From: Chloroflexota bacterium
Lineage (GTDB): Bacteria > Chloroflexota > UBA6077 > JAJPHF01
NCBI GenBank assembly: GCA_035294645.1
Contig: DATGKN010000164.1
Coordinates: 99 to 64,098, forward strand
Direction of reading: 5' to 3'
DNA: 64,000 bases
Shown: piece after piece, positions 9,200 to 47,061 of the stretch
How positions within the stretch are numbered: the first letter of the stretch is position 1
Layout of the letters: the number at the start of each line of letters is the position of its first letter
Notes under the pieces: generated by a model
The model's database searches: none
Seen by the model: only the letters and a program-made list of their open reading frames with translations
Told to the model about the DNA's origin: nothing
Position numbers and translations under genes: made by a program

Positions 9200-10507
9200 T
9201 CAGCGCGGCTCCCCGCCCCCCACCACGATCGCCCCGGCCCGGACCGCCCGCAGGAACGCCGCCGCCACCTCCGGGTCGAACTGCGTGCCCGTGCAGCGCT
9301 CGATCTCCTCGAGCGCCACGGCCAGGGGCAGTGCCCGTCGGTATGGCCGCGTGCTGGTCATCGCGTCGAAGGCGTCGGCTACCGCCACCACCCGCGCCTC
9401 GATCGGGATCGCCAGCCCGCTCAGCCCGGTCGGATACCCGCGCCCGTCGAACCGCTCGTGGTGGTACAGCACGCAGCCCAGCGAGTGGCGCAGGAACGGC
9501 ACGTGCTGGAGCATGCGCGCGCCGACCTCCGGGTGCTGGCGCATGATCGCCCACTCCTCGTCGGTCAGGCGGTCGGCCTTGAGCAGCACATAGTCGGCGA
9601 TGCCGATCTTGCCCACGTCGTGCAGCAAGGCGCCCAGTTCCAGCGTGTACAGGCGCTCGGGGTCCCAGCCCAGCTCGCGGCCGATAGCCACCGAGTAGGT
9701 GGCCACCCGTTCGACGTGCCCGCCCGTGTAGGCGTCGCGCGTCTCGATGGCCGCGGCCAGCACGCGCACGGTGGCCAGGTACGCCTCCTGCAGCTCCTGC
9801 CGCCGCGCGCGCTCCTGCACATAGGCTTGGCGCAGGTCGCGGGCGTACGCCAGCAGCTGCTGCTCAGCGCGGGCCAGCGCGTCGGCGCGCGCGGCGCTCT
9901 CCGTCTGCAGCCGCGCCTGCTCGAGGCTAGCGGCGGTGTGCTGGGCGAGGAGCTCTAGCAGCAGGCGCTCGGGCTCGCTGGTGCGGTGCGGCACCGGCCA
10001 GCCCACGTACAGCAAGCCCACCCGCTCGCCGCGCGCCTGTAGCGGTAGGGCGGCCAGCGCGCTCCAGCCCAGCGCTCGCGCCGCCGCGCGCTCGGCCGGT
10101 TGCAGGTCGTCGCTTTCGACCGAGGTGGCCTCCAGCGCCTCGCCGCGCGCCAGCGCCCGCGTGCCCAGGGTGCTGCGGCGCAGCGCCACCAAGGCGGGAG
10201 CGTGGGCGGTGTCGCTCAGCGTTAGGGCCGCGCCCAAAGCGCCGGCCGCGGCGTCCCAAGGGTAGACGACCGTGCCGCGGGCTCCCAGCAGGCGTGTCAC
10301 CGGCCGCGCGAGTTGGGCGAGCCGCTCGGGCAGGGGGCCGGCGGCGGTCAGCGCGGCCGCGCTCGCGCGCACCGCGGCCAGATACGCTTTGGCGCTACGC
10401 CGGGACCGATCGGCGCATGCGGCGGTCGGCCGGCTAGAGGGGCGCCGGGCGCCGGCGGGCGCCGGTTCCCCAGCGGCCGTATTGGTAGGGCTAAGGCTAA
10501 TGATCAT
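9200..10507 (-). CDS. GAF domain-containing HD-GYP phosphodiesterase (c-di-GMP signalling)
   Basis: HD motif LLHDVGK and HD-GYP signature YHHERFDGRGYP. N-terminal GAF-like region. Confidence 0.8.
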   Translation of the reverse strand: MIISLSPTNTAAGEPAPAGARRPSSRPTAACADRSRRSAKAYLAAVRASAAALTAAGPLPERLAQLARPVTRLLGARGTVVYPWDAAAGALGAALTLSDTAHAPALVALRRSTLGTRALARGEALEATSVESDDLQPAERAAARALGWSALAALPLQARGERVGLLYVGWPVPHRTSEPERLLLELLAQHTAASLEQARLQTESAARADALARAEQQLLAYARDLRQAYVQERARRQELQEAYLATVRVLAAAIETRDAYTGGHVERVATYSVAIGRELGWDPERLYTLELGALLHDVGKIGIADYVLLKADRLTDEEWAIMRQHPEVGARMLQHVPFLRHSLGCVLYHHERFDGRGYPTGLSGLAIPIEARVVAVADAFDAMTSTRPYRRALPLAVALEEIERCTGTQFDPEVAAAFLRAVRAGAIVVGGGEPR

Positions 10508-10585: not shown

Positions 10586-11680
10586 CTAGCTCGTCGGCGC
10601 GGCCCGCGGCGCCAGGGGGAGGCGTAGGGTGACGCGAGTGCCGGCGCCCGGCGCGCTGTCGAGCGTGACTGCCCCACCATGATCGTCGGCAGCCCGGCGC
10701 ACAATGGCCAGCCCCAAGCCTAGCCCGCCGTGCCGGCGGCCTGGGCCACGGCTGACCTGGTAGAACCGCTCGAACACGTGCGGCTGCTCCTCGGGCGGGA
10801 TGCCGGGCCCTTGGTCCGCCACCGTAATCGCCACCTGCGCGCCAGCGGTGGCCACGCGGAGCTGCACCTCGCTCCCCGCGGGAGCGAACGCCGCCGCGTT
10901 CTCCAGCAGATGCCGCACCGCCTGGCGCAGTAGCAGCGGCCAGGCGGCATCCAGCGGCAGCGGGGCGGGAGGGCGCTGGTAGGCGAGCGTGACCCGGGCG
11001 GCGCCGAACGCGTCGGCGGCGTCAGCCACCGCTTCGTCGAGCACCGTGCGTAGGTCCACTGCCCGCCGCGGGCCCGCGGGGCTGGCCAGCAGCAGTACGT
11101 CCTCCAGCACGCGGGCCAGCCGTTGGGAGCCGGCCGCGATCTCGCGTACGAATGTCTCGAGGTGCCGGTGGCTGAGTTGCTCGCCGCGCGCCTGCAACAG
11201 CTCGGCGTAGCCCAGCACCAGCGACAGCGGCGTGCGCAGCTCGTGGCCCAGCAGGGCCAGCACCTCGCTCTTGAACTCCTCCAGCTCCTGGCGGGCGCGG
11301 GCGCGGGCGTGCTCCTGGGTGCGCAGCGCCGCGCGGCAGCGCGCCACCAGCTCGGCGGGGTCGAACGGCTTGGCGAGGTAGTCGACAGCGCCCGCGGCCA
11401 GCCCCAGCACCTTGTCCTCGGGCGTGCCCCGCGCGCTCAAGAACAGGACCGGGATTGGCGGCTGGCGCTGGCTGAGCTGGGTACAGAACTCGAGGCCGCT
11501 GCGCTCCGGCAGCATGATGTCCAACACGACCAGGTCGGGGAGCCACTCGGCCACGATGCGCTCGGCCTCGGCCACGTCCGCCGCCGTGCGCACGGCCATG
11601 CCCTCTAGGGCCAGATTGTCGTGGACCAGCCGCCGCAGGTGCGCGTCGTCGTCCACCACCAGGACGCGCGGTGGCTGCAT
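10586..11680 (-). CDS. Response-regulator receiver :: histidine kinase fusion protein
   Basis: REC domain (VLVVDDDAHLR...DLVVLDIMLPERSG...DYLAKPF), then H-box LGHELRTPLSLVLGYAELL and ATPase G-boxes (DQGPGIPPEE...GGLGLGLAIV). Confidence 0.8.
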   Translation of the reverse strand: MQPPRVLVVDDDAHLRRLVHDNLALEGMAVRTAADVAEAERIVAEWLPDLVVLDIMLPERSGLEFCTQLSQRQPPIPVLFLSARGTPEDKVLGLAAGAVDYLAKPFDPAELVARCRAALRTQEHARARARQELEEFKSEVLALLGHELRTPLSLVLGYAELLQARGEQLSHRHLETFVREIAAGSQRLARVLEDVLLLASPAGPRRAVDLRTVLDEAVADAADAFGAARVTLAYQRPPAPLPLDAAWPLLLRQAVRHLLENAAAFAPAGSEVQLRVATAGAQVAITVADQGPGIPPEEQPHVFERFYQVSRGPGRRHGGLGLGLAIVRRAADDHGGAVTLDSAPGAGTRVTLRLPLAPRAAPTS

Positions 11681-11841: not shown

Positions 11842-14800
11842 GTGGCCGCTCTCGGATCCGCTCGGGGCTGGAAGCAACAAGGGTGCCACCCCGTGCGTCG
11901 CCGTCTGCCGTTCGGCGCGCTTGCCTGGTGGCCTGCCTCCCGCCCGCCCGGTGCGGTTCCCCGGGGGGGCTGGCCGGTGGGGCGCGTGCGCCTGCGGCCC
12001 GTGTCTCCGCGCTGGAGCCTCCAGACCAAAGTCAGCCTGCTGCTGGCCCTCACCGTGGCCCTGACGCTGCTCGCTTTCGGCGTGGTGATGGGCCGCGCGG
12101 TCGAGACGGCGCTGCGCGGCGAGGCGCTGCGGCAGACCGAGGCCACGGCCGCGCTGGCCGCTCGCATCGCCCAGTACCACTTCGCTGGGGCCCGCGACCG
12201 CCTGATGGCTCTCGCCGGGCAGCCCGCGATCCTCCAGGCCGCGGCCGCGGACGATGCCGCGACGATGGCCGAGCTGCTCCAGCGCTACGCGCCGCAGCGG
12301 GGTACCATGCTCGAGGCCGTCCACTGGGTCGACGCGCGGGGCGTGCTGCGCGCCTCGACCAGTCCGTCGGCGCCGCTCGGCCGGAGCTACGCGGCGCAGT
12401 TGTGGTTCTTCGCCGCCCGCTCGACGCTGGAGTCGTACGTGGGGATCCCGCTCGCCCCCGAGCATACCGGCCACCCCGTGGTGCCGATCAGCATGGCGCT
12501 GCGCGACGCCGACGGCGCGTTCTTCGGGTTGCTGATCGGCCCGCTCGACCTGGCCACGCTGGGCGATAGCCTCGCCCTGGCCGCCGTGCGCCCCAGCCAG
12601 CGCGTGCTGCTCGTGGACGAGCGCACGGAGACCATCGCCAGCTCGACGCACCCCGACGACCTGCTGCAGCCGGCCGCCCGGCTGGGCCTAGAGGCCGACT
12701 GGCGGCGACTCCCGCCGGCTACCGTGCTCGCGGTGGGGACGCCCCCGACCCGACTGCTGCTGGTGGGGCAGGCGCGGGCGGCGGGGCTGCCCTGGGCGGT
12801 GCTGGTGGTCGAGTCGCACGATGCCGCGCTAGCCGTGCTGGAGGCGCTGTTGCGACGGGGCGCCCAGCTCCTGCTCGTGGCCGTGCCGCTGGCGGCGCTG
12901 GCCGGCTGGCTGCTCGGCCACAGCGTCGTGCGGCCGTTGGTCGAGTTACGGCGGGCGGCGCGGCGGTTGGCCGCGGGCGACCTGGGCTGCACAGTGCCCG
13001 TGCGCGGTCACGACGAGCTGGGCCAGGTGGCCAGCAGCTTCAACGCCATGAGCGCCGCGCTGGCCCGCGCCTACGCGCGCAGCGTCACCGCCGAGCGCGC
13101 CGCCCAGGCCGCCGCCCAGCGCGAGGCCTTGCTCAACCGCATCAATGCCCGCGTGCGCGCCTCGCTCGACGTGGCTGCCGTGCTGCGCACCACCGTCGAG
13201 GAGCTGGGCGAGGCGCTGGGGGCGGCCCGCTGCTGCCTGCACCTCGTGCAGGACGGCGAGCTGCGCGCCTGTGCCTACGAGTGGACGCGGCCGGGGGTAC
13301 CCCCGGCGCGCCAGCAGGACCTCCGCGCGATGCCGCTCTCCCGCCTGGCGGGGCGCGAGCACCGCACGATCGCGATCCCCGATCTCGCCCGCGCGCCGGA
13401 GCTAGCCGACCCGGCGCTGGGCCCCCAGCCCGATTGGGAGGCGCTGGAGGTGCGCGCGATCCTGGTCACCCCGCTGCTCGTGAACGACCGATTGCTGGGC
13501 AGCATCGCCGTGCACGAGACCGCGGGGCCGCGCGCCTGGACCGCCGACGACATCGCCCTGGTCGAGGGGGTGGCCGGCGAGGCGGCCGTCGCGCTGACCA
13601 ACGCACGCCTGTACGCCGAGGCCGAGCGCCGCGCCGAGCGGCTGGCCGCCGTCACGCGCATCAACCGCGCCATCAGCGCCCGGCTCGACCTCGCCCGCCT
13701 GGTGGAGGTGGTTGGCGAGGCGCTCGGCCAGCTCGTGCCGTTCGACCGTCTGTCGCTGGTCCGCTTCGAGCCCGACGGCCAGCACTACCGTGTGCTGGGC
13801 GCCATCTGGCGGGTGCCGTCCGTCTGGGAGCCCGCCCCGCTCAACCCCGTGACCGGCACGCCCATCGAGCTCGTCTACCGCGAGCAGCGGCCGGTGATCC
13901 GCGACGACTTCGCCGACCCCGCGATCACCCCGCCGCTGTCGCGACGGGAGCGACAGATGCTGGCGGGCGGCCTGCGCTCGCAGGTACTGGTGCCGATCTT
14001 CGCTCCTGCCGACGAGCCGCATACCGCGCCCGTGGTCCTCGGCGCCCTGGCGCTGGTCAGCCGCGTGCCGCGGCAGTACGGTCCCGAGGAGGTGGCGCTG
14101 CTGGAGCCGGTGGCCGACCAGCTCGCCGTGGCCATTCACAACGCCGATCTGTACGCCCAGGTCGTGGCTGGCCAGCAGCGCCTGGCTACTATCATCGCCG
14201 GCGTCGCCGAAGGGGTACTGGTGCTGGACACTGCCGGCCAGGTGGCGCTGTGGAACGCGGCCGCCGAGCGGCTGCTAGGCCTACCGGCGGCCCAGGCCCT
14301 GGGGCGGCCTTGGTCAGCGGTGCTGCGGGGCACCGACGCCGCCGGCCGGCCGCTGGCGGATCCTGCCAGCGCGCTAGCGCAGGCCATCGCCGCCGGCCGC
14401 GCGGCGACCGTCGAGGTGCGTGTCGAGCCCCTGCCCGGCCAGGTCTGCTGGCTCAGCGTCAGCCTGGCGCCCGTGGAGGTCGACCAGGGCCACCACCTGG
14501 CGCTCACCTGCCGCGACGTGTCGGCCTACAAGGCGGTCGAGCAGCTCAAGTCCGCCTTCGTGGCCACCGTGTCGCACGAGCTGCGCACGCCGCTGGCGTC
14601 GATCAAGGGCTACGCTGCCACCCTGCGCCAACGCCGCGCCCAGCTGCCCGCCACCGTGCAGGAGGAGTACCTCACGATCATCAACGAGGAAGCGGACCGC
14701 CTCAACGCGCTGGTCAACGAGCTGCTCGACGTGGCGCGCCTGGAGCGCGGGGTGGCGGCCATCGCCTGCCAGCCCGTGGCCCTGGCGCCGCTGGTGGCGC

Positions 14801-15279
14801 GCGCCGTGGAGCTGATGCGCGTGCGCACCGACCGGCACGCGTTCGTGGCGGAGGTGCCCGCCGGCCTGTACGTGCTGGCCGCCCCCGACCGGCTGGAGCA
14901 GGTGCTCACCAACCTGCTGGACAACGCGCGCAAGTACTCGCCGCGCGGCGGCACGATCCGCGTGACAGCTGCCGCCGAGCCGCCCGACGCGGTGACGCTG
15001 GTGGTCGCCGACGAGGGGATCGGCATCCCACCCGAGCGGCAGGCCGAGCTGTTCCGCCCGTTCGCGCGCGTGGAGAACGTGCTCACGCGGCAGACGGAGG
15101 GCGCCGGGCTGGGCTTGTACATCTCGCGGCAGCTCGTCGAGCGCATGGGCGGGCGCATCGCCCTGCGCAGCGCGCCCGGGGCGGGCACCACCGTGCTGGT
15201 GACGCTGCGGGCCGCGGCGCCCCTTGCGGCCAAGCTGTTGCCGCCCGTGGGGCCGGCGCCGGAAGTGCGCCTGCCCTGA
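11842..15279 (+). CDS. Membrane sensor histidine kinase (TM, HAMP, two or more GAF, PAS, HisKA, HATPase_c)
   Basis: TM VSLLLALTVALTLLAFGVV, HAMP-like (VRPLVELRRAARRLAAGDLG...LGQVASSFNAMSAAL), H-box VATVSHELRTPLASIKGYA, G-boxes DEGIGIPPER...GAGLGLYISRQLV. The true start is uncertain; an in-frame GTG at 12001 is just before the TM helix. Confidence 0.8.
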   Translation: MAALGSARGWKQQGCHPVRRRLPFGALAWWPASRPPGAVPRGGWPVGRVRLRPVSPRWSLQTKVSLLLALTVALTLLAFGVVMGRAVETALRGEALRQTEATAALAARIAQYHFAGARDRLMALAGQPAILQAAAADDAATMAELLQRYAPQRGTMLEAVHWVDARGVLRASTSPSAPLGRSYAAQLWFFAARSTLESYVGIPLAPEHTGHPVVPISMALRDADGAFFGLLIGPLDLATLGDSLALAAVRPSQRVLLVDERTETIASSTHPDDLLQPAARLGLEADWRRLPPATVLAVGTPPTRLLLVGQARAAGLPWAVLVVESHDAALAVLEALLRRGAQLLLVAVPLAALAGWLLGHSVVRPLVELRRAARRLAAGDLGCTVPVRGHDELGQVASSFNAMSAALARAYARSVTAERAAQAAAQREALLNRINARVRASLDVAAVLRTTVEELGEALGAARCCLHLVQDGELRACAYEWTRPGVPPARQQDLRAMPLSRLAGREHRTIAIPDLARAPELADPALGPQPDWEALEVRAILVTPLLVNDRLLGSIAVHETAGPRAWTADDIALVEGVAGEAAVALTNARLYAEAERRAERLAAVTRINRAISARLDLARLVEVVGEALGQLVPFDRLSLVRFEPDGQHYRVLGAIWRVPSVWEPAPLNPVTGTPIELVYREQRPVIRDDFADPAITPPLSRRERQMLAGGLRSQVLVPIFAPADEPHTAPVVLGALALVSRVPRQYGPEEVALLEPVADQLAVAIHNADLYAQVVAGQQRLATIIAGVAEGVLVLDTAGQVALWNAAAERLLGLPAAQALGRPWSAVLRGTDAAGRPLADPASALAQAIAAGRAATVEVRVEPLPGQVCWLSVSLAPVEVDQGHHLALTCRDVSAYKAVEQLKSAFVATVSHELRTPLASIKGYAATLRQRRAQLPATVQEEYLTIINEEADRLNALVNELLDVARLERGVAAIACQPVALAPLVARAVELMRVRTDRHAFVAEVPAGLYVLAAPDRLEQVLTNLLDNARKYSPRGGTIRVTAAAEPPDAVTLVVADEGIGIPPERQAELFRPFARVENVLTRQTEGAGLGLYISRQLVERMGGRIALRSAPGAGTTVLVTLRAAAPLAAKLLPPVGPAPEVRLP

Positions 15280-16553: not shown

Positions 16554-19139
16554 TCACGACTGGTCTCTGCTGGGCGCGCAGTCGTACAGTTGCCCGGGCG
16601 GCGGGCCGAATGGCCGTGCTGATGGGGTGCCGCCGTAGGCCGTGGCCTCCACCAGCTGGCAGTGGGCCTGCACCCAGGCCTGGCGGTCGGCGTGTCCGCC
16701 GGGCCCGGCCCCAGGCGGACCGCCCAGCAGCACGAACCGCAGCGCGCCAGCACGCACCAGGGCCGCGAGCTGGGCCGTCGTGGGCACCGGGTCGGCGCCA
16801 GCGAAGCCGCCCATCGCCAGCACCGGCTCGCCCGTGGCCAGGATCAGCGGCGCCGCGGCCATCGAGCCGGTCGTCGCCACCAGGTACGTCGCGCCGTCGC
16901 GGTGCGCCTGGAGGTAGGCGATGAGGCCCGGGCTGGTAGCGTCGGGGGGCGCCCCTGGTGGCCCCGGGGGCAGCCCGGGCGGCAGCGGCGGATTCCCGGC
17001 CACGGGCACGCCCAGGCCCGGGCCGAGCCCGGCGCCGGGTGGTGGTCCGAACGGCAGCCCGCCGGCCGCGCGCGGCCCCGCCTGGGGGTTCATCGCCAGC
17101 GCGGGCTGCTGAAGGGTCGCTACCCCCCAGGCCGCCGGCCCGAGCAGCAGCGCCGCCATGCCGAGCCCGAACGCGGCGACGCCTATCGTCCGTCGGCGGC
17201 CGCAGTGCGCCGCGATCAGGCCACCGCCGGCCAGCAGCGCGCCGCCCGCGATGACGCTCCCCAGCCACGGGTGCCACCCGCCGCGCGCCACCAGCACCGC
17301 GGGCCAGCCCGCGCCCAGCCCCAGGGCCAGGGGCAGCAGCCGCCCCGCCCAGGTTCGCTGCCGATAGGCGTCCCACAGCGTGGCCAGGCCCGTGCCCGCG
17401 AGGGCGGCGATGGCCGGGGCCAGGGCGGCGGTGTAGTAGGGATGGAAGATGCCCCGCATGCAACTGAACACCACGGCGTGGGCGACCAGCCAGCCGCCCC
17501 ACAGCAGGCACGCCGCGCGGGGGCCGTCGGTGCGCGGCCGGCGCCCGCGGCTGGCGAGCCCCACGGCCAGGCCGAGCGCGGCCAGGGGCAGCAGCCAGCT
17601 GATCTGATCGCCGACCTCCGCGTTGAATAGGCGCAGCCAGCCCGGCGGCCCGCCGAACCCGCCGCCGGGGCCCGGGGGCGGGCCGCCGGACGACAGCGCG
17701 GCACCTGGCGGCGGGGGCAAGGTGTCGCCAACGGCCCCCGGCGGCGCGCCGGCCGGGGGCGGTGCGTCCGGCGGGCCCCCGGGGCCCTGCCCCCACAGCC
17801 GGCCCAGCCCGTTGTAGCCGAGCGCCAGCTCGAAGGCGCTGTTGGTCTGGCTGCCGCCAATATATGGGCGGGCTTCCGGCGGCGTGAGCGCCACTGCCAG
17901 CGGCCACGCCGCCGACACCGCGGCCAGCAGCGTCCCAAACGCCAGCAGGTGGCCCAGGCGCCGCCGCAGGGTGCCCGGCGCGGCCACGAGGTACGTCAGC
18001 GCGCACGCCGGCACCACCAGGTACGCTTGCAGCATCTTGGTGGTGAATGCCAGCCCCACCAGCGCGGCGCTCGCCAGTAGCGGGCGCAGCCGCCCGCTCT
18101 CCACGGCCACCAGGAGGCACCCGCCGGCCCCCACCAGCAGCAGCACGAGCAGCGCATCGGGCAGGTTGGTGCGGTTGATGGCCACGCTCACCGGCGTGAG
18201 CGCCAGGATGAGCGCCGCGAGCAGCGCGGCCAGTGGCCCGTGGCTGCGGCGCACCGCCCAGTGCAGCGCCAGCACGGTGAGCACCCCTTCCACCACCTGC
18301 GGCAACAGCAGGCTGGTGCCCTGGAAGCCGAGCAGCCGCGCCGCCAGCGCCTGGAGCCACAGGGCTAGCGGGGGCTTGTCCACGGTGATGAAGCCGGCGG
18401 GATCGAACGCGCCGAACAGGAAATTCGACCAGCTCGCCAGCATGCTGCGCACCGCTGCGGCGTAGTAGGGGTTGCCCCAGCCCTCGCGCGTGATGCCCCA
18501 GCCGTACAACACCGCCGCCAGCGCGAGCACGCCGCTCAGCGCCGGTCGCTCCCAGCGCGGGGCGCCCGGTGCCGCCACGCCGTGGTGCCCGGCGGGCACG
18601 CCCGCGGAGGCTTGCTCGGCGCCCGAGGTGCCCGGCAGGCGGTCGGTGGGCGTGGGACACGGCAGGGCCGCGCGCTGCTGCACGCGCGGTGGCGCGCCAG
18701 CGGGCCGAAACACGATCCGATCGCCCAGCAGGAAGTTGGCGCCCGCGGCCGCCAGGATCCCCAGCGCTGCGGCCACGCTCGGCGGCAGCGCCGCCCGCGC
18801 GCCCGTGAACACGGCCCAGTTCAGCGCCGCGGTGCTGGCCATCGCCAGGTGGAACCGCGCCCACTGCCGCGCTAGCGCCGCGCCGGCCGCCTGGGGCGAA
18901 CGGCGATCGCGCCAGGTGAAGCCGGCGCTGAGCCCGAAGTTCACCTGGGTGGCCACGAGCAGCGCCGCGGCATTGGCCAGTAGCGGCGCCCACCCTAGCG
19001 CGAGCCCGACGTGCAGCCCGGCGAGCTGCACCAGGCTGGCCGCCGTGCCGGTGGCGGCGAAGCGGAACAGGCGAGGCCGGAACAGTGCGGGCCCGCGCGT
19101 CGCGCGGCTCGGCGCCGCCGGGGGGCAGCTAGCCAGCAT
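16554..19139 (-). CDS. Fusion of a GtrA-like flippase domain with a GT-C glycosyltransferase (GT39/ArnT/PMT-like) plus C-terminal Pro/Gly-rich extension
   Basis: N-terminal 4-TM GtrA-like segment (RFAATGTAASLVQLAGL...RFHLAMASTAALNWAVF...). Then a GT39/ArnT-type region (YGWGITREGWGNPYYAAAVRSM...FITVDKPPLALWLQALAARLLG...). Multiple TM helices and PPGxPP-rich loops. Start chosen at MLASCPP (11-nt overlap with the upstream GT2 stop); ORF-track start 19199. Confidence 0.7.
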   Translation of the reverse strand: MLASCPPAAPSRATRGPALFRPRLFRFAATGTAASLVQLAGLHVGLALGWAPLLANAAALLVATQVNFGLSAGFTWRDRRSPQAAGAALARQWARFHLAMASTAALNWAVFTGARAALPPSVAAALGILAAAGANFLLGDRIVFRPAGAPPRVQQRAALPCPTPTDRLPGTSGAEQASAGVPAGHHGVAAPGAPRWERPALSGVLALAAVLYGWGITREGWGNPYYAAAVRSMLASWSNFLFGAFDPAGFITVDKPPLALWLQALAARLLGFQGTSLLLPQVVEGVLTVLALHWAVRRSHGPLAALLAALILALTPVSVAINRTNLPDALLVLLLVGAGGCLLVAVESGRLRPLLASAALVGLAFTTKMLQAYLVVPACALTYLVAAPGTLRRRLGHLLAFGTLLAAVSAAWPLAVALTPPEARPYIGGSQTNSAFELALGYNGLGRLWGQGPGGPPDAPPPAGAPPGAVGDTLPPPPGAALSSGGPPPGPGGGFGGPPGWLRLFNAEVGDQISWLLPLAALGLAVGLASRGRRPRTDGPRAACLLWGGWLVAHAVVFSCMRGIFHPYYTAALAPAIAALAGTGLATLWDAYRQRTWAGRLLPLALGLGAGWPAVLVARGGWHPWLGSVIAGGALLAGGGLIAAHCGRRRTIGVAAFGLGMAALLLGPAAWGVATLQQPALAMNPQAGPRAAGGLPFGPPPGAGLGPGLGVPVAGNPPLPPGLPPGPPGAPPDATSPGLIAYLQAHRDGATYLVATTGSMAAAPLILATGEPVLAMGGFAGADPVPTTAQLAALVRAGALRFVLLGGPPGAGPGGHADRQAWVQAHCQLVEATAYGGTPSARPFGPPPGQLYDCAPSRDQS

Positions 19140-19992
19140 GGACACGCCTCCGCTCCGACGCCTGTGGTACCGCTGGCGCATCGGCCCGGCCCAGCTCACG
19201 GCGCAGCGACAGCAGCTCGGCCAGCGCGCGGGCGATCACCGCGGGCCGGGCGCCTGTGGCGCGGCCGGCGGTGCGCGGCAGGTGGCGCACCGGCCGCTCT
19301 TTCACCCGGAAGCCCGCGCGCCGCGCCTTGATCAGGAACTCGGCGCTGAACGCCGCGCCACGCGAGCGCACGGTGAGCCGCTCCCACACCGCGCGGCGGA
19401 ACAGCTTGAACGCGCAGTCGATGTCGCGCGCGGTGTAGCCGAACAGGGCGTGGACCAGCAGCCGCCAGCCCCAGGCGTTCAGCGTGCGCAGCGGCGGGTC
19501 GACCCGCGGGCACCGCCAGCCGATCACCAGGTCGGTGGACTCGTCGAGGTCGGCCAGGAAGTCCGCCAGCTCGCGGACATCGAACTGCCGGTCGGCGTCG
19601 GTGTAGAAGAGCAGCTGCTTGCGCGCGGCATCGAAGCCGCTGGCCAGCGCGGCGCCGTAGCCCTGATTGCGCTGGTGCGTGACGACGCGCAGGTGCAGCG
19701 CCGGCTCGCGGGCGCTCAGCGCCGCCAGCAGCCGACCAGTGGCATCGCGCGAGCCGTCGTCGACCACCACGATCTCGAAGTCGTCCACTAGGGCGCGCAG
19801 CACCGCGGCCAGCTCGCGGACGGCCGCCACGATGCAGGCTTCCTCGTTGTAGGCTGGCAGCACGGCCGAGAGGCTCAGCGGCTCGGCCGGCCCCGCTGGC
19901 CGCAGGGGGCGTACCGCCCTGGCGAGCTGGGGTAGGGGCCGCAGGGTAGACACGCGCGGCCCCTCAAGGGACAGAATGCTTCGCCCTGACAT
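19129..19992 (-). CDS. GT2-family polyprenol-phosphate sugar synthase (GtrB / Dpm1 / Ppm1-like)
   Basis: LSLSAVLPAYNEE...EIVVVDDGSRD...HQRNQGYGAALASG (DXD-type GT2-A motifs). ATG at 19992 preceded by GGGAGGAG. The 395-aa ORF-track version is over-extended. Confidence 0.8.
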   Translation of the reverse strand: MSGRSILSLEGPRVSTLRPLPQLARAVRPLRPAGPAEPLSLSAVLPAYNEEACIVAAVRELAAVLRALVDDFEIVVVDDGSRDATGRLLAALSAREPALHLRVVTHQRNQGYGAALASGFDAARKQLLFYTDADRQFDVRELADFLADLDESTDLVIGWRCPRVDPPLRTLNAWGWRLLVHALFGYTARDIDCAFKLFRRAVWERLTVRSRGAAFSAEFLIKARRAGFRVKERPVRHLPRTAGRATGARPAVIARALAELLSLRRELGRADAPAVPQASERRRVHAG

Positions 19993-20023
19993 GAGTCTCC
20001 TCCCTGGTCGCATGGACGTGCGC

Positions 20024-20302
20024 TCAGCCCGCCTGGGGCTGGGCGGCCTTCGGGGGGCGGCCCCGGCGGCGCGGCCGCCACTCCAGCGGGTTCGGTAGCG
20101 GCCGCACCGGCTGGACCTCGTCCAGGAACACTGCCCCGCCACAGTGCGCGCAGCGCACCTGCCAGAGCCAGCACACCTGCCGCACCGCGCGGCCCGGGAC
20201 GACCAGCACGCCGCGCTCGCCCGAGGACCCTTCGGACGACCAGGTCCAGGCGCCCGAGATGCGCCCGCACAGGTAGCAGCGGACTTCGGCGCAAAATCGC
20301 AT
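20024..20302 (-). CDS. Small zinc-ribbon protein (two CxxC pairs) with basic C-terminal tail
   Basis: CYLCG ... CAHCG. GGAGGA RBS 5 nt upstream of ATG. Same strand, 31 nt upstream of the GT2 gene. Confidence 0.55.
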   Translation of the reverse strand: MRFCAEVRCYLCGRISGAWTWSSEGSSGERGVLVVPGRAVRQVCWLWQVRCAHCGGAVFLDEVQPVRPLPNPLEWRPRRRGRPPKAAQPQAG

Positions 20303-20490
20303 CGGTTCCTCCTCACGTCGTGGGGCTGTGGTGCTATCCGCAGAGTACGGGGGCGGACCGGGCTCCTACATCCAGCGAAGGCGTACTCGTGGCCCGACCG
20401 CTTGGGTGGAGGCGCCGCTCACCCGAACGGGTCATCGGCCGGCGCGCGTGGGCCGCGGACGGGGGAACAGTGGGCAGGCGGCGCGGGGGG

Positions 20491-21198
20491 CTAGCGGGCG
20501 GGGAGCGGCGCGAGCGGCGGGCTCGCCGGCGCGGCGCTGCCGGGTGGGGGGAGCGCGCCGCCAGGCGGCGGCAACAGCCCGGCGCCCGGAGGGAGCCCAC
20601 CCAACGGTGGGGCGCCATCGCGGCTGAGGATCTGCACGCTCACGCCGCCCGCGGCGTCGCTGACGGCCACGAACTGGCCCGGCTGGAGCGCGCTGCGGTC
20701 CGCCGTGACCACTTCCTGCACGCGGGTGTCCGGCGCCAGCGGCACGCGCTGTTCGCCGAACGGGGTGGTGAGCACCAGGGTATCGCCCTCCACCGCGGCC
20801 ACTAGTCCTACCCGTGGCGCGCTCCCCGGCGGCAGGGTGCCCGGCGCGGGGAGTAGTGGGTCACTGACGCCGGTCGGCAAGGTCGCGCTCGCCGGCGCGC
20901 TAGCGGGCGCCGGCGGCAGGGCGGGCAGGGGCGTCACGGCCAGCGGCGGCGTCGGGCGGAACGCAGTTAGCCGCGCTGCCCCGCCGCCCAGCCCGGCCCC
21001 GACCACACAGGCGGCAGCGAGCAGCGCCCACCACGGCGCCCGGCGGAGCGGGCGGGCGGTTGGGGATAGGGCGCCAGCCCTGGCCAGCGCGGACGTGTCG
21101 CGCGGCGCCGCCCGCGCCCCGTCGGTCGCCACCGCCGTGGCCGCCGAAGGCTGTGCAGCTGGCCGGGCGTGATGATCCTGGTCTGCGCGCTCTGTCAT
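20491..21198 (-). CDS. Single-pass membrane protein with Pro-rich extracytoplasmic region and a small beta-rich domain
   Basis: TM WWALLAAACVVGAGLGG. Pro-rich linkers (PLPALPPAPASAPASATLP...; C-terminal GGLPPGAGLLPPPGGALPPPGS). Central segment VGLVAAVEGDTLVLTTPFGEQRVPLAPDTRVQEV...LQPGQFVAV resembles the beta-barrel/MP domain of HlyD-type adaptors. Confidence 0.5.
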   Translation of the reverse strand: MTERADQDHHARPAAQPSAATAVATDGARAAPRDTSALARAGALSPTARPLRRAPWWALLAAACVVGAGLGGGAARLTAFRPTPPLAVTPLPALPPAPASAPASATLPTGVSDPLLPAPGTLPPGSAPRVGLVAAVEGDTLVLTTPFGEQRVPLAPDTRVQEVVTADRSALQPGQFVAVSDAAGGVSVQILSRDGAPPLGGLPPGAGLLPPPGGALPPPGSAAPASPPLAPLPAR

Positions 21199-21231: not shown

Positions 21232-22497
21232 TCACTCGTAGCGCAGCGCCTGGATGGGGCGCAGCTGCGCGGCGCGCAGCGCGGGGTAGGTGCCGAAGAA
21301 CAGGCCCACGGCCACCGAGACGCCGAAGGCCAACAGCACAGCGTCGGGAGTCACCACCGCCTGCGCGTCCCGCGTGCCGGGCGGGCCGGGCAGTACCGCC
21401 ACCGCGCCCACGAAGCGCGCCGCGACCAAGCCCGCGCCGATCCCCAGCAGCCCGCCGCAGCTGCTTACTACCAGCGCCTCGATGAGGAACTGCACCAAGA
21501 TATCGCGCCGCCGGGCGCCCACTGCCTTGCGAATGCCGATCTCCCGCGTGCGTTCGGTGACCGACACCAGCATGATGTTCATGATGCCGATGCCGCCCAC
21601 TACCAGCGAGATGCCGGCGATGGCGCCCAACAGCAGCGTCATCGAGCCGCTGACCTGGCTGACAGTCCGCAGGAAATCTTCCTGGCTCTGGATGCTGAAG
21701 TCGTCCTGCACGACGCGGTGGCGCTGGCGCAGCAGCGCCCCGATCTCCGCCACGGCGCGCGCCATCTCTGCCTCGTCTGCCACCGAGACGTTGATCGTGG
21801 ACACCGTCTGCGCGCCCTGGACGTTGCGATTCGCCGCCACCCGCGCGATGTAGGTCGTCAGCGGCACGAACACCTGGTCGTCCGGGCTGCCGAAGCCCGT
21901 GCCGCCCTTGCTCTCCATCACCCCGATGACCGTGAAGATCACTCCCGTGCTGCCCGACACGCTGAGCCGCACGGCCTGACCGAGGGGGCTCCCGCCGGGG
22001 AACAGGTTGCGCGCTACCGTGGCCCCAAGCACCATCACGGCGCGGCGCTGCTCATACTGCTCGGCGGTGAAGAACTGCCCCGCCGCCGGCCGCCAGTTGC
22101 GGACCGCCGGGTAGCTGGGGTTGGTGGCCACGATGCGCGTGTTCCAGTTCTGGTTGCCGGCCACGAGCTGGCCGCTGCTACCCAGCTCGGGTGCCACGGC
22201 CTGCACCGAGCGCACCGCCTGCAGGATCGCCGCGGCGTCTTGCAGCGTCAGGGTCGCTGCGCTGCCCTGGGCGCCGCGCACCCCGCCCGATTGCGTGGAG
22301 CCGGGCCGGACGAAGAGAATGTTGGTGCCCAGGCTCTGGATCTGCTGCAAGATGCTGATCTGCGCGCCGCGCCCGACCGCCACCATGGCGATCACCGCGC
22401 CGACGCCGATGATCAGCCCCAGCATGGTGAGCAGCGCCCGCAGCTTGTTGGCCGCTAGCGCCCGCACCGCGATCCGCACGCTCTCCCACAGGTTCAT
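21232..22497 (-). CDS. MacB/FtsX-family ABC transporter permease (YknZ/MacB-like)
   Basis: N-terminal TM, large extracytoplasmic domain, three C-terminal TM helices. ...[31 protein letters not shown]... (FtsX signature). Confidence 0.85.
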
Positions 22498-23225
22498 GGG
22501 CGCCCCGCCTGCGCCGGCCGCGCCACCGGCGCATCGCTGCTGATCACCCCGTCCCGCAGCGTGATCACCCGCTGGGCATGCTCCGCGATGTCCTCCTCGT
22601 GCGTCACCAGCACCACCGTCAGCCCTCGCTCCCGATTCAGCGCCTGCAGCAGCCCCATGATCTCCTCGCTGGTCCGCGTGTCCAGCGCCCCGGTCGGCTC
22701 GTCCGCCAGTATCAGGCTCGGCTCCGTCACCAGCGCCCGCGCGATCGCCACCCGCTGCTGCTGGCCCCCCGACAGCTCCGTCGGCTTGTGGTGCGCCCGC
22801 TCCGCCAGCCCCACCGCCCGCAGCGCCGTCAGCGCCCGCTCCCGTCGGGGCCGGATGCCCCCGTAGAGCAGCGGCAGCTCCACCTGCTCCACCGCCGGCA
22901 GTCGCGGCAGCAGGTTGAAGCTCTGGAACACGAACCCCAGCTTGCGGTTGCGGATCCTCGCCAGCTCGTCGTCGCTAAGGTCCGCGACCTCCACCCCGTC
23001 CAGCTGGTAGCTGCCGCTGGTGGGCTGGTCGAGGCAGCCGATGATGTTCATCAGGGTGGACTTGCCCGACCCCGACGGCCCCATGATGGCCACGAACTCG
23101 CCGTGCTGGATGTCCAGCGACACCCCCCGCAGCGCGTGCACCGCGATGTCGCCCATCGTGTACACCTTCGTCACGTCGCGGATCCGGATGACCGTCTGGT
23201 CGGGTGCCGTGAGCAACTGCTCCAT
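22494..23225 (-). CDS. ABC transporter ATP-binding protein (MacB/LolD/YknY type)
   Basis: Walker [13 protein letters not shown] signature [15 protein letters not shown], Walker [15 protein letters not shown] at 23225 with GGAGGGGAG RBS; 4-nt overlap with the permease gene. Confidence 0.9.
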
Positions 23226-23279
23226 TGCCGGGTGCTCCCCTCCGTTTCTCACGGGCGGTGAGGCTGACCGGGCAGCGCG

Positions 23280-26111
23280 CTAGCGCGGGCCCGCGCCGCG
23301 CGCGCCGCCAGCGGCCGGGGGGGCGCCGGGGGGTGGGCCGCCGGGAGGCGGGGCGCCCGGGGGCGGCGCGCCCGGTGGCAGCAGCAGCCCCCCGACCATC
23401 GGGTTGCTGGTGTTCCCAATGACGGTTGGGAGGACCACCTGCTCGCCTTCGGCTAGGCCGAACGTGATCTCGGTCTGCTGCTCGTCGCTGAGGCCGCGCT
23501 GCACCGCGCGCGTCGCGATCTGGCCGTCGGCGGTCAGCACATCCACGACGTACCCGGGGCCCTGCTGGCGCAGCGCGCGGCTGGGCACTAGCAGGGCGTC
23601 GGCCTTCTGTGCGTAGATGATGGTGGCGGTGGCCGTCATGCCGGGCCAGATGTCGCGCTGGTCGTCCAGCGCGATGTACACCAGGTAGCTGGTCACGCCC
23701 TGGGAGGTGGTCCCCTGAGGGCTGAGCGCCGTCACCCGCCCCGGCACCACGCGCCCCGGCAGGGCGTCGAGGGTGAGCTGCACGGGTAGCCCGACCCGCA
23801 GGTTCGGTATGTCCACCTCCGCCACGCTGGCCTCGACGTGCAGCGCGTCGGTGCTCATCACGGTGATGGCGCCGCCGCTGTTGGTGGCCCCGCTGCTGCC
23901 GGAGGTCGTGCTGCCACTGGCGGACCCGGAGCTGCCGCCACCGATGCCGCCGGATTGCTCGCCGACGTTGTAGCCCACTTGGCTGACGACGCCCGCGAAC
24001 GGGGCGACAAGTACGGCGTGGTCGAGGTTGCGCTGCGCCTGGGTCAGGCGGGCGCGGGCATCGTCCACGGCGGCGAGCTGGGCGGCGAGGTCTTGCTCGG
24101 TGTAGGGCCGTAGCTTGAGCTGGGTGTCGGCTTGCGCTTGGGCCACGGCCTGGCGCTGCTGCTCGAGGGCCTGGGGGCTGGTGGGCTGGCGCTTGAGGGC
24201 GAGCTGCGCCTCCGCCTGGCGCACGGCCTGGCGCTGGGCCTCCAGGTCCTCGTCGGTGTAGGGGCGGCGCGCCTTGGCCAGCTGCTCCTCGGCCTGGCGC
24301 ACGGCGGCCTCGGCCTGGGCGATCTCCTCCGGCCGCGGCCCCGCCTGGAGCTGTTGCAGCTTCACCTCGGCCGCTTGCAGGTTGGCGCGGGCGGTCGCCA
24401 CGTTGGCCTCGGCGGCGGCGAGGTCGTCGGGCTTGGGCTGGGCGCGTAGGTCGGCCAGCTTGGCCTCGGCGCTGCGCACGCCCACGCGGGCGGCTTCCAC
24501 GGCGGCTTGCGCGGCGGCGATCGCTTCCGGCCGCGGGTTGCGCAGCTCCTCCAGGTGGGCGAGCGCGCTCTGGTAGTTGTTGCGCGCCTGCTCGAGGGCG
24601 CTTTGGGCCTCGGCCAGGTCGGCGGGATTGGGGTTGTACAGCTGGTCGAGCTTGGCCTGGGCGCTGGCCACTGCCGCCAGGGCCGCGTTCACGTTCGCCT
24701 GGGCGCCGGGCAGGCCGTTGTTGCGCCCGCCGGCTTGCAGGCCCTGCAGCGTCGATTGGGCGCGCAGCAGCGTGGCGTTGGCGCTGCTCACGGCCGCCTG
24801 GGCGCTGTACAGGTCCTGGGGGCTGACCTGGGACGCCCCGCCGGCCACGCCGCCGCTGACGGTTGCGTTGGTCGCGCTGGTCGCGCTGGCACCGCTGGTG
24901 TTCGCGCCGGCGGCCGTGCCCGTGGCGGGCGCGGTGCTGGCGGCCGCGCTGGTGGTGCCCGCGCTGGAGCCGCCGGGCTGCCCCTGGAGCTGCCCCAGGC
25001 GCGCCTGCGCGGCCTGCAGGTTGCGGGCGGCGGTGAGCACGTCCTCGCCCGCGGCGGCCATCTCCCAGGCGCCGGTCTGGGCGCGGGTCTGGGCCAGGGT
25101 GGTCTGCGCGGAGCGGAGCTGGGCCTGGGCCTGCTGGAGCTGGGCCTGGGCCACCGCCACGTCGGCCGCCGAGGGGTTGCGCAGCTGGCGCAGGCGGGCC
25201 TCGGCGCTCTGCTGGGCGGCCAGCGCGTTGTCCACCGCGACCTGGGCGGCCACCAGATCGGCCACCGTGGGGTGGAGCAGCTTGTCGAGCTGGTCCTCGG
25301 CGCTGCGCAGGTTGGCCCGCGCGGAGGCGAGCTGCGCCTCGGCGGCCTCGAGGTCGGCCGGGGTGGCGCCCGCGCGCACCTGTTCCAGCCGGGCGAGGTT
25401 GCTGGCCAGGGTAGCGCGGGCGCTGTCCACGGCGGCCTGGGCGGCGGCCAGGTCGGCCGGCAGCGGCGAGTTGCGCAGGTCCTGCAGCTTGGCCCGCGCG
25501 CTGTCGAGCGCCGCCTGCGCCGCTGCGATGTCCTCGGGGCGTCCCTGCGCCTCCATGCTGCGCAGCTTGGCCACCGCGGCGTCCAGCTGGGCCTGGGCGG
25601 TGGCGATGTCCTCGGATCGCGGCGTGGCCAGGTCGGCCAGGCGCGCCTGCGCCTGCGCCAGCTGCGCTTGCGCGCTAGCGACCTCCTCGGGCCGCGCGCC
25701 GTTGAGCAGCGTCTGGAGCTTGGCCTCGGCCTGCGTCACCGCCGCCTGGGCCTGGCGGTACTGGAGCTCCAGCTCGTCGGTATCCAACTGCGCCAGCACC
25801 TGGCCGGCCTCGACGCGGTCGCCGACTTTCACCGCGACGCTGGCCACCCGCCCGCTGACCAGGAAGTTGAGCTTCGTGCTAGTATCGGCCACCACCGTGC
25901 CCGCGCTGCTCACGCTGGCTTGGATCGGGCCGCGAACGGCCGGCACGGTCTGCACCTCCCGGGGCGCGGGCGTGGTCAGGCGCGCGTACGCGGCGTAGCT
26001 CAGCCCGGCGCTGAGGACCAGCGCCAGGCCGAGATAGAGCCACTGCGTGGGACGCAGGCCCGCGCCGACCCCGCGCAGGGTGGCGCCGGGGCGTGCGGCA
26101 GCTGCTCGCAT
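23280..26111 (-). CDS. HlyD/MacA/YknX-family membrane-fusion (periplasmic adaptor) protein with a hugely expanded alpha-helical repeat region (943 aa)
   Basis: N-terminal TM (WLYLGLALVLSAGLSYAAYA). Beta-strand (VSSAGTVVADTSTKLNFLVSGRVASVAVKVGDRVEAGQVLAQLD). About 20 tandem 25-33-aa helical units of type P-[ED]-[DE]-[IL]-A-x-AQAxLDxAxAxL. Canonical hairpin end and apfdGvV-like motif (LVAPFAGVVSQV). C-terminal beta domain and GAPPPGAPPPGGPPPGAPP tail. [13 protein letters not shown]. Confidence 0.8.
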   Translation of the reverse strand: MRAAAARPGATLRGVGAGLRPTQWLYLGLALVLSAGLSYAAYARLTTPAPREVQTVPAVRGPIQASVSSAGTVVADTSTKLNFLVSGRVASVAVKVGDRVEAGQVLAQLDTDELELQYRQAQAAVTQAEAKLQTLLNGARPEEVASAQAQLAQAQARLADLATPRSEDIATAQAQLDAAVAKLRSMEAQGRPEDIAAAQAALDSARAKLQDLRNSPLPADLAAAQAAVDSARATLASNLARLEQVRAGATPADLEAAEAQLASARANLRSAEDQLDKLLHPTVADLVAAQVAVDNALAAQQSAEARLRQLRNPSAADVAVAQAQLQQAQAQLRSAQTTLAQTRAQTGAWEMAAAGEDVLTAARNLQAAQARLGQLQGQPGGSSAGTTSAAASTAPATGTAAGANTSGASATSATNATVSGGVAGGASQVSPQDLYSAQAAVSSANATLLRAQSTLQGLQAGGRNNGLPGAQANVNAALAAVASAQAKLDQLYNPNPADLAEAQSALEQARNNYQSALAHLEELRNPRPEAIAAAQAAVEAARVGVRSAEAKLADLRAQPKPDDLAAAEANVATARANLQAAEVKLQQLQAGPRPEEIAQAEAAVRQAEEQLAKARRPYTDEDLEAQRQAVRQAEAQLALKRQPTSPQALEQQRQAVAQAQADTQLKLRPYTEQDLAAQLAAVDDARARLTQAQRNLDHAVLVAPFAGVVSQVGYNVGEQSGGIGGGSSGSASGSTTSGSSGATNSGGAITVMSTDALHVEASVAEVDIPNLRVGLPVQLTLDALPGRVVPGRVTALSPQGTTSQGVTSYLVYIALDDQRDIWPGMTATATIIYAQKADALLVPSRALRQQGPGYVVDVLTADGQIATRAVQRGLSDEQQTEITFGLAEGEQVVLPTVIGNTSNPMVGGLLLPPGAPPPGAPPPGGPPPGAPPAAGGARGAGPR
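24010..25750 (-). repeat. Degenerate in-frame tandem coding repeats (about 75-100 nt units) encoding the coiled-coil repeats of the adaptor, interrupted by Ser/Thr/Gly/Ala low-complexity linkers
   Basis: Repeated protein units listed under the adaptor CDS. DNA copies are diverged (not a recent duplication), visible as recurring gcctgggc / gcgctg / ctcggc blocks and as LGLGLG-type artefacts in other frames. Confidence 0.6.
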
Positions 26112-43274: not shown

Positions 43275-43560
43275 CGTCGTCCTCGCTTCCCCTGGCGGGT
43301 GACTACCCGCCGCTGTTAAGTCAATCATCGACGCGCGCCGGCGATTGCACAGGGGGGGGGCACCCTTGCTCCCTATACACAGTGTGCCATGGCCGCGGCC
43401 GCCCGCGTCGTGCACGCGATCACAGCGCCGTCGCGAACCGCGCCACACCCCGCGTATCACCCGAGGTAACCGCTGGGGCGGCGCGGGCGTCCGGCGACCG
43501 ATTGAGCGGATGGGCGCGCGCCTGATACACTTCGGGCCGAGTTGCGCACATGGGGAGCCG

Positions 43561-46978: not shown

Positions 46979-47061
46979 TGTACACACTGCACCCGCCACG
47001 TGGCGCGCATTGACACTGCCCGCGGCGGCGCCTATAAGAATCCCTAGCCCCGGAGAAGCGC

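Follow-up and report, generated by a model that had tools for sequence, protein, structure and literature searches.

In a 64,000-nt stretch of an uncultured Chloroflexota bacterium (contig DATGKN010000164.1; G+C ~74%), which we call the window, two overlapping minus-strand genes encode a soluble family 2 glycosyltransferase (GT2) and an 861-aa protein in which a GtrA domain is fused in frame to an ArnT-like GT-C glycosyltransferase. We consider it probable that this pair constitutes a YkcC/YngA/YkcB-type (GtrABC-like) transmembrane glycosylation system encoded by two translationally coupled genes. GtrA family members are assumed to flip polyprenyl-phosphate sugars in phage serotype conversion, in the decoration of teichoic acids and rhamnan, and in mycobacterial arabinan synthesis. 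The synthase, GtrA, and GT-C domains of the window all lie within positions 19992-16554 on one strand, and the latter two share one polypeptide. An initial annotation of the region 16554-20302, in which three open reading frames (ORFs) run head to tail on the minus strand, had proposed a complete synthase/GtrA/GT-C set in two genes, with the GT2 gene overlapping the start of the fusion; the domain content and the 11-nt overlap between the GT2 stop and the fusion start (ATGCTGGCTAG) substantiate that proposal. We found no described GtrA::GT-C fusion in the open-access literature. The architecture is already annotated in public databases, where JGI names relatives 'ArnT-like glycosyltransferase/putative flippase GtrA'.

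The domain assignments of the fusion protein rest on profile matches well above their cut-offs. The gene probably starts at the ATG at 19139, preceded by GGAGG, which makes 861 aa the likely length of the protein; the Pfam coordinates in this paragraph are given on the longer, 881-aa ORF. GtrA_DPMS_TM (PF04138) matches aa 46-164 along its full length (model positions 1-117 of 117; E 8e-14, 52.2 bits against a cut-off of 26.1), PMT_2 matches aa 274-431 (E 1e-27, 97.4 bits against 26.1), and YkcB_C (PF24878) matches aa 759-846 (E 2e-29, 102 bits against 27). The 861-aa protein is 100% identical to an NCBI protein (P0001) encoded on a 66.7-kb contig of a Chloroflexota metagenome-assembled genome (MAG), named there 'glycosyltransferase family 39 protein'. 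The earlier assignments of the N-terminal domain to the GtrA family and of the body to the GT39/ArnT-type GT-C enzymes thus stand, and the Pro/Gly-rich loops described with them are borne out by a proline-plus-glycine content of 46% in residues 417-511 and 671-749, both of which are predicted to be disordered. The 'long C-terminal extension' is indeed present, but it corresponds to the YkcB_C domain that is standard in this GT-C family, not to an addition.

The predicted structure agrees with these assignments. An alignment (A1) of 126 homologues of the 861-aa protein served both as the input for the AlphaFold (AF2) model and as the basis for residue conservation. The predicted local distance difference test score (pLDDT) of the model exceeds 90 through the transmembrane (TM) core, and the chain runs from a four-helix GtrA bundle (helices at 22-47, 52-76, 82-115, and 120-142) through a disordered linker into the TM core, which is interrupted and followed by disordered segments, and ends in an alpha/beta domain (Table 1). 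When the model was compared with the PDB by Foldseek, the top match was ArnT with undecaprenyl phosphate (5f15/5ezm; E 8e-9, target TM-score 0.61), followed by Pmt4, the oligosaccharyltransferases STT3/AglB, EmbA/B/C, and ALG3/9/12. The GtrA portion matched chains of PfDPMS (9ep0, 5mlz, and 5mm1) over 118-127 columns at 21-23% identity, with probability 1.00 and weak E values of 0.085-0.22; the matched region is the GtrA-like TM domain of that enzyme, the only GtrA-like domain that has been solved. Arginine-rich stretches at the GtrA N-terminus, in the loop between the second and third helices (WRDRR), and after the fourth helix fit an N-in/C-in orientation. The first two place both ends of the GtrA domain in the cytoplasm, as far as charge indicates, and the even number of helices in the bundle leaves the orientation of the GT-C body undisturbed by the N-terminal fusion. 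In the predicted topology, the linker would be cytoplasmic and the loop that carries D246 and the VDKPP motif would be outside, while helix count would place YkcB_C outside as well, as in ArnT. Across the 126 homologues, conservation is at least 90% at D246, D254, K255, P256, and P257, all of which the window GT-C keeps; D246 and the VDKPP loop are candidates for the catalytic and phosphate-binding residues.

The fusion is real and maintained. The codon-position G+C of the gene is.78/.62/.92, and the third-position value (GC3) stays at 0.91-0.93 from the GtrA part across the linker into the GT-C body (0.925 for aa 166-205, most of the linker); this constancy shows that the junction hides no frameshift, a possibility that the initial annotation had itself raised. 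All nine clade-invariant GtrA residues (Q65, F68, W76, D78, W93, N107, A123, G127, and F144) are kept in the fused domain, as are all of the residues that are nearly invariant in the clade. The same GtrA + PMT_2 (+ YkcB_C) architecture occurs in P0002, P0003, P0004, and P0006, and further fused representatives at 50% identity include P0154, P0199, and the partial P0179 and P0173. Taken together, the fusions form at least six clusters from different samples, their mutual identity is only 45-60%, and every named source is a Chloroflexota MAG. Soluble GT2 proteins of 262-273 aa are encoded directly upstream of the fusion in the P0002 and P0006 loci, and the GT2 of the same-architecture locus L001 is 64% identical to that of the window. 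One might still suspect that the long ORF stems from an assembly or sequencing error, or from a recent and inactivating read-through, and that it joins two genes whose products work separately: the two parts meet in a low-complexity, disordered stretch of ~54 aa, sister genomes carry separate GtrA and GT-C genes with a 4-nt overlap that one indel could fuse, and all of the examples come from metagenome assemblies. The recurrence of the architecture across divergent clusters, the presence of the 861-aa sequence itself in several sources (a cluster of 5 members in NCBI, JGI, and Logan), the GC3 of ~0.92 that continues across the linker, and the retention of the conserved residues in both halves make this explanation exceedingly unlikely.

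An exhaustive search of 50%-identity representatives with the window GtrA domain returned 526 relatives at E <= 1e-3. The architectures of the 150 best of these 526 reveal that the domain belongs to a clade in which nearly all members are stand-alone proteins of 120-260 aa; approximately 6 are GtrA::GT-C fusions and none is a GT2::GtrA protein. The 120 best homologues of the GT-C are mostly actinobacterial (Streptosporangiales) YkcB-like proteins without GtrA. A word-indexed search with the 151-aa GtrA domain as query, which we did not use for counts, returned 8 stand-alone GtrA proteins and missed P0001 despite the exact query inside it; short-domain queries can evidently miss long fusion proteins in searches of this kind.

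The second gene of the pair encodes an enzyme that, judged by its relatives, would be a polyprenyl-phosphate sugar synthase. GT2 starts at the ATG at 19992, preceded by GGGAGGAG, and its product is NCBI HLI29164.1. Its codon-position G+C is.78/.53/.90, while that of the extended upstream frame is non-coding-like (.60/.89/.74). PF00535 (Glycos_transf_2) matches with an E of 2e-23, and the closest solved relatives are ArnC (9bhc, 1.7e-17), GtrB sll0501 (5ekp, 8e-9), and PfDPMS (5mlz, 1.5e-7), all three of which are polyprenyl-phosphate glycosyltransferases. The 287-aa protein carries a DAD motif at 132-134. It contains no TM helix: its sole hydrophobic peak, at residue 51, is the beta-1 strand of the Rossmann fold, and the C-terminal TM anchor of the class (2 helices in GtrB and ArnC, 4 in PfDPMS) is missing. 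In this respect it resembles a variant in which an anchor-less glycosyltransferase has a separate membrane partner (PMC8035078). The best NCBIfam matches of GT2 (ArnC, the dolichyl-P hexose transferase DPhHxTase, and PpgS) are all below their cut-offs, with the ArnC equivalog at 67 bits against 529. For the long protein, the NCBIfam matches to ArnT, Pmt, and Agl23 are likewise sub-threshold (20 bits against 567 for the ArnT equivalog PRK13279, 18.8 against 800 for PrMnsylTfPmt), and a sequence search of the PDB gave no match at E <= 1. Given how far these scores fall below the cut-offs, neither protein is an orthologue of a characterized enzyme.

The closest named system is that of Bacillus subtilis, where YkcC (GT2), YngA (GtrA), and YkcB (GT39) provide the same three functions and YkcB carries the same PMT_2 + YkcB_C pair as the window GT-C (PMC8035078 Table 2; 10.1101/2022.02.03.479048 Fig. 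S14). It is a predicted undecaprenyl phosphate-sugar pathway for surface glycosylation in the YclJ regulon, and its sugar and acceptor are unsettled (PMC8035078; 10.1101/2022.02.03.479048 Fig. S14). In B. subtilis, however, the components are three separate proteins and yngA lies in a different operon, whereas GtrA is covalently joined to GT-C in the window; YkcC, moreover, is described among the membrane-linked GT-A enzymes (PMC8035078), whereas the window GT2 has no TM helix. The same logic of a synthase, a GtrA protein, and an outside GT-C governs the phage/Shigella GtrA-GtrB-Gtr* and the Listeria/Bacillus GtlA (CsbB)-GtcA-GtlB (YfhO) systems (PMC8035078, PMC11127046). Unlike the window, these use three polypeptides and synthases with C-terminal TM helices; their GT-C enzymes are only distantly related to that of the window, and their acceptors are known (O-antigen, lipoteichoic acid, and wall teichoic acid). 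The ArnC / ArnE-ArnF / ArnT pathway, which adds aminoarabinose to lipid A, supplies the best solved relatives of both the window GT2 (ArnC) and the GT-C model (ArnT), but two small, separate proteins make up its heterodimeric flippase, unlike the fused GtrA of the window, and lipid A is an unlikely acceptor in Chloroflexota.

Covalent attachment of a four-helix GtrA-like domain to an enzyme of the same pathway has precedents in the type-III enzyme PfDPMS of Pyrococcus furiosus and in bacterial GT2::GtrA proteins (PMC12992685). We compared the window with fifteen related loci (L001-L015), eight of which (L008-L015) are GtrA-clade loci found with an 8-sequence GtrA alignment. In Streptosporangium (L003) and Dormibacteraceae (L005), a GT2::GtrA gene lies upstream of GT-C, forming complete two-gene modules, and the order GT2 - GtrA - GT-C along the DNA is common to them and the window. 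Whereas PfDPMS, L003, and L005 attach GtrA to the synthase, the window attaches it to the transferase. The initial annotation had contrasted the fusion with systems of three separate proteins; the distinctive site of GtrA attachment survives the comparison, whereas two-gene modules as such are not unusual, and the window differs from the known ones only in where GtrA attaches. A third arrangement is found in P0059 (L002 5001-8069, JGI metagenome 3300086576), a 1022-aa triple fusion of GT2 - GtrA - PMT_2 - YkcB_C that, by its domain content, unites every part of a three-component glycosylation system in a single chain.

The remaining loci illuminate how such fusions may have arisen. In L009 (Chloroflexia), GtrA is followed by GT-C with a 4-nt ATGA overlap at the position of the window linker, and L012 has the order GT-C, GtrA, GT-C with an ATGA overlap at that same position. 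GT-C precedes GtrA in L007, L008, L011, and L015, GtrA precedes GT2 in L014 (Geodermatophilus), L006 (= L010) has GT2 then GtrA only, and L013 has GtrA alone, with no GT2 or GT-C match nearby. Because GtrA / GT-C pairs are adjacent, and sometimes overlap by 4 nt, in other Chloroflexota, the window fusion is best read as having probably arisen by read-through of an adjacent, translationally coupled gene pair. The fusion is a small evolutionary step, and both the order and the attachment of the components are evidently fluid in this system, as far as gene arrangements can tell. We also considered whether the window could be an actinobacterial GT2::GtrA / GT-C pair with a moved gene boundary. We rejected it as a full account: identity between the window GT2 and the GT2 portions of L003/L005-type fusions is only 27-30%, and the window GtrA clade is almost wholly stand-alone, with the 150 best relatives devoid of GT2::GtrA proteins. 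The low GT2 identity and the stand-alone clade together indicate that the fusions of GtrA to GT2 and to GT-C were independent events.

Several members of this collection merit separate mention. L012 (2760-7795 of the Chloroflexota MAG contig DATGJB010000054.1) has one GtrA gene flanked by paralogous YkcB-like GT-C genes for proteins of 698 and 817 aa, an arrangement consistent with one GtrA serving two transferases. In the cultured Ktedonobacter robiniae (L015, 3021-5242 of NZ_BNJG01000003.1), the matches to GT-C and the adjacent GtrA are split across frames, which suggests pseudogenes or sequencing errors. P0163 (ENA, 323 aa) is a tandem GtrA-GtrA protein of the same GtrA clade with two PF04138 stretches, and may represent the proposed GtrA dimer in covalent form; P0144 likewise has two matched stretches.

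The catalytic cycle that we envision for the two proteins begins at the inner membrane face, where GT2, lacking a membrane anchor, would load a monosaccharide onto polyprenyl phosphate. The GtrA domain would then move the lipid-linked sugar to the outer face, or hold synthase and lipid beside the transferase, or do both. The ArnT-like GT-C body, with D246, the VDKPP loop, and an outward YkcB_C, would finally transfer the sugar to an extracytoplasmic acceptor, with a wall polysaccharide, a lipid, and a protein all conceivable. Two lines of work favor the first role for GtrA. Genetics in Listeria, Bacillus, and Lactococcus favor flipping (PMC7389260, PMC8035078), and PfDPMS crystals contain flipped dolichyl phosphate mannose inside the GtrA-like TM domain (PMC12992685).

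Several observations weigh against this interpretation of the locus. With all equivalog scores far below their cut-offs, NCBIfam does not permit an assignment of activity, sugar, or acceptor. Direct flippase activity has never been demonstrated for any GtrA protein (PMC11127046), and an anchor role is on record as a proposal for the GtrA-family protein Rv3789 of Mycobacterium tuberculosis (PMC7389260). GtrA proteins are also thought to work as dimers (PMC8035078), so a single fused copy needs either dimerization of the whole protein or a different mode of action. L006 shares the MacB - GT2 - GtrA order of the window with GT-C neither attached nor adjacent, its GtrA stopping after 170 aa, so that this GtrA clade does not depend on being fused. 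The correspondence of L006 to the window is otherwise close: the two are syntenic, with MacB permease, GT2, and GtrA proteins that are 67%, 67%, and 54% identical, respectively, and the GT2 and GtrA genes overlap as in the window, at ATG(C/T)TGGCTAG. Finally, AlphaFold modeling of an artificial chimera of GT2 and the fusion gave the GT2 part a pLDDT of 30-80 from a shallow alignment, and the resulting docking is unusable.

A different account of the GtrA domain, which we regard as rather unlikely, treats it as a docking or lipid-binding platform instead of a flippase: it would recruit the anchor-less GT2 in trans, as in PfDPMS, and tether it to the GT-C, with flipping left to another protein or to the GT-C/GtrA interface. 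The GT2 proteins of the window, L001, L006, and the P0002 locus have no TM helix, and relatives join GT2 directly to a GtrA domain (L003, L005, and P0059), which makes it plausible that the synthase docks on GtrA here. GtrA and DPMS TM domains, moreover, form one Pfam family, to which the structural match between the model and PfDPMS conforms, and comparable proposals exist elsewhere. According to PMC7389260, Rv3789 is proposed in its anchor model to recruit and physically associate with the GT-C enzyme AftA, much like the pairing in the window; that association is non-covalent, its role as flippase or anchor is disputed, the GT-C is of a different family, and the sugar is decaprenyl-P-arabinose. 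A hub model has been put forward for the Pseudomonas aeruginosa GtrA-like protein 6247 (10.1101/2020.04.19.049825). The gene neighborhoods point the other way. In most loci of the clade (L007, L008, L009, L011, and L012), the partner adjoining GtrA is GT-C, without GT2 nearby, so that anchoring of GT2 cannot be the sole role of GtrA in this clade and a role directed at the GT-C is no less likely. The crystallographic and genetic evidence for flipping cited above, and the position of the window GtrA in a stand-alone clade that lacks GT2::GtrA among its 150 best relatives, likewise count against a platform.

The initial annotation had taken the fusion to imply obligate coupling of flipping and transfer. 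That claim is not upheld: members of the GtrA clade are mostly stand-alone, L006 pairs GT2 with GtrA in the absence of GT-C, and the flippase activity of GtrA is itself unproven (PMC11127046; PMC7389260). What the fusion shows is that GtrA can work in cis with the GT-C part. A bolder form of the two-gene system, to which we assign a low likelihood, is that GT2 and GtrA::GT-C form a closed synthase-translocator-transferase machine in which the lipid-sugar would never enter the bulk pool and the single GtrA copy would pack against the TM surface of the GT-C, not into a homodimer like those of small multidrug resistance (SMR) proteins. Were this true, the ~90-kDa chain would offer the first tractable means to visualize and assay directly the hand-off of lipid-sugar by GtrA, and it could help settle the flippase-versus-anchor question.

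In other respects, the locus is an ordinary module for glycosylation of the envelope. Its value lies in the Rosetta-stone evidence that it provides and, possibly, in structural or biochemical access to the function of GtrA. That GtrA occurs naturally fused to GT-C (the window), to GT2 (Actinobacteria and PfDPMS), and to both (P0059) argues for physical contact of the three activities, and the GtrA::GT-C chain is a convenient single-polypeptide target for cryo-electron microscopy or proteoliposome assays.

Table 1. Features of the two-gene glycosylation module and of the ORF upstream of it (window positions; TM, transmembrane; pTM, predicted TM-score)
Feature	Position	Strand	Description
92-aa Cys-rich orphan ORF	20024..20302	-	two CxxC pairs, basic tail; NCBI HLI29165.1, hypothetical
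Ribosome-binding site of the 92-aa ORF, GAGGAGGA	20307..20314	-	read from sequence
Soluble GT2, polyprenyl-phosphate sugar synthase type	19129..19992	-	287 aa; DAD at 132-134
GtrA::GT-C fusion gene	16554..19139	-	including stop codon; 861 aa; AF2 mean pLDDT 82, pTM 0.79
GtrA_DPMS_TM domain, four TM helices	18714..19076	-	aa 22-142; Pfam full-length, AF2
Disordered linker GtrA/GT-C	18552..18713	-	aa 143-196, pLDDT ~43; predicted cytoplasmic
GT-C TM body, ArnT-like, ~13 TM helices	17109..18551	-	aa 197-677; PMT_2 aa 254-411
VDKPP motif	18369..18383	-	aa 253-257, predicted first extracytoplasmic loop
Pro/Gly-rich disordered loop, predicted extracytoplasmic	17613..17792	-	aa 450-509; pLDDT <50 at 461-492
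Pro/Gly-rich linker to C-terminal domain	16932..17108	-	aa 678-736
C-terminal alpha/beta domain YkcB_C	16557..16931	-	Pfam aa 739-826

The initial annotation described the 92-aa ORF upstream of GT2 as a zinc-ribbon protein with a good ribosome-binding site that leads a trio of genes. The ribosome-binding site is there, and so are two CxxC pairs (CYLC at 9-12 and CAHC at 51-54), but neither Pfam nor NCBIfam assigns the protein to a family at E <= 0.01, and its place at the head of a trio finds no support in related genomes. Among 5.8 billion proteins, it has no homologue outside the 90% cluster to which it belongs, and no counterpart was found in L001-L015 (by tblastn for L001-L007), not even in the syntenic L006 or in L001, which has the same architecture. 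Its lack of wider relatives and its absence from related loci place it outside the glycosylation module. A rival view would make it a dedicated third component, a regulator or an assembly factor, of a genuine three-gene system. Such a role would accord with its location on the same strand 31 nt upstream of GT2, its strong ribosome-binding site, its coding-like codon-position G+C (.74/.62/.92), and its constant length of 92 aa in close relatives (6 cluster members); these features must be set against its missing homologues, family, and counterparts, and we judge the view very unlikely. The ORF looks instead like a probable real gene, a lineage-specific orphan that may be co-transcribed with the module. 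Promoter and terminator scans of the window sequence found nothing. Between this ORF and the permease gene further upstream lies a 235-aa Pro/Ala-rich ORF (20491-21198, minus strand) with one hydrophobic segment and no Pfam match, which is absent from the syntenic L006; that it encodes a secreted or anchored protein, conceivably the acceptor, is pure speculation.

Directly upstream, at 21232-26111 on the minus strand, are genes for an unusually long HlyD-like adaptor of 943 aa, a MacB-type ABC ATPase, and a permease of MacB_PCD/FtsX type. L006 (2431-3681) keeps the order permease - GT2 - GtrA, its permease being the 67%-identical protein noted above, and this suggests a functional or transcriptional link between exporter and glycosylation genes. 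No nucleotide-sugar gene is adjacent to the module. Among the genes checked in the window, the only other obvious glycan genes are those for an NAD-dependent sugar epimerase/dehydratase (43510-44571, plus strand) and a GT4 glycosyltransferase (45776-46999, minus strand), ~24-27 kb away. A dense cluster of large sensor-kinase genes surrounds the locus (4784-8821, 9200-10372, 10586-11680, 11842-15279, and 26947-28953), encoding GAF/PAS/Cache/HAMP histidine kinases, a hybrid kinase, and a GAF-HD (HD_5) protein. At 57920-61168, on the minus strand, the window also encodes a 1082-aa P-type cation ATPase with an unusual combination of N-terminal heavy-metal-associated domains and the Cation_ATPase_N/C domains typical of P2-type enzymes.

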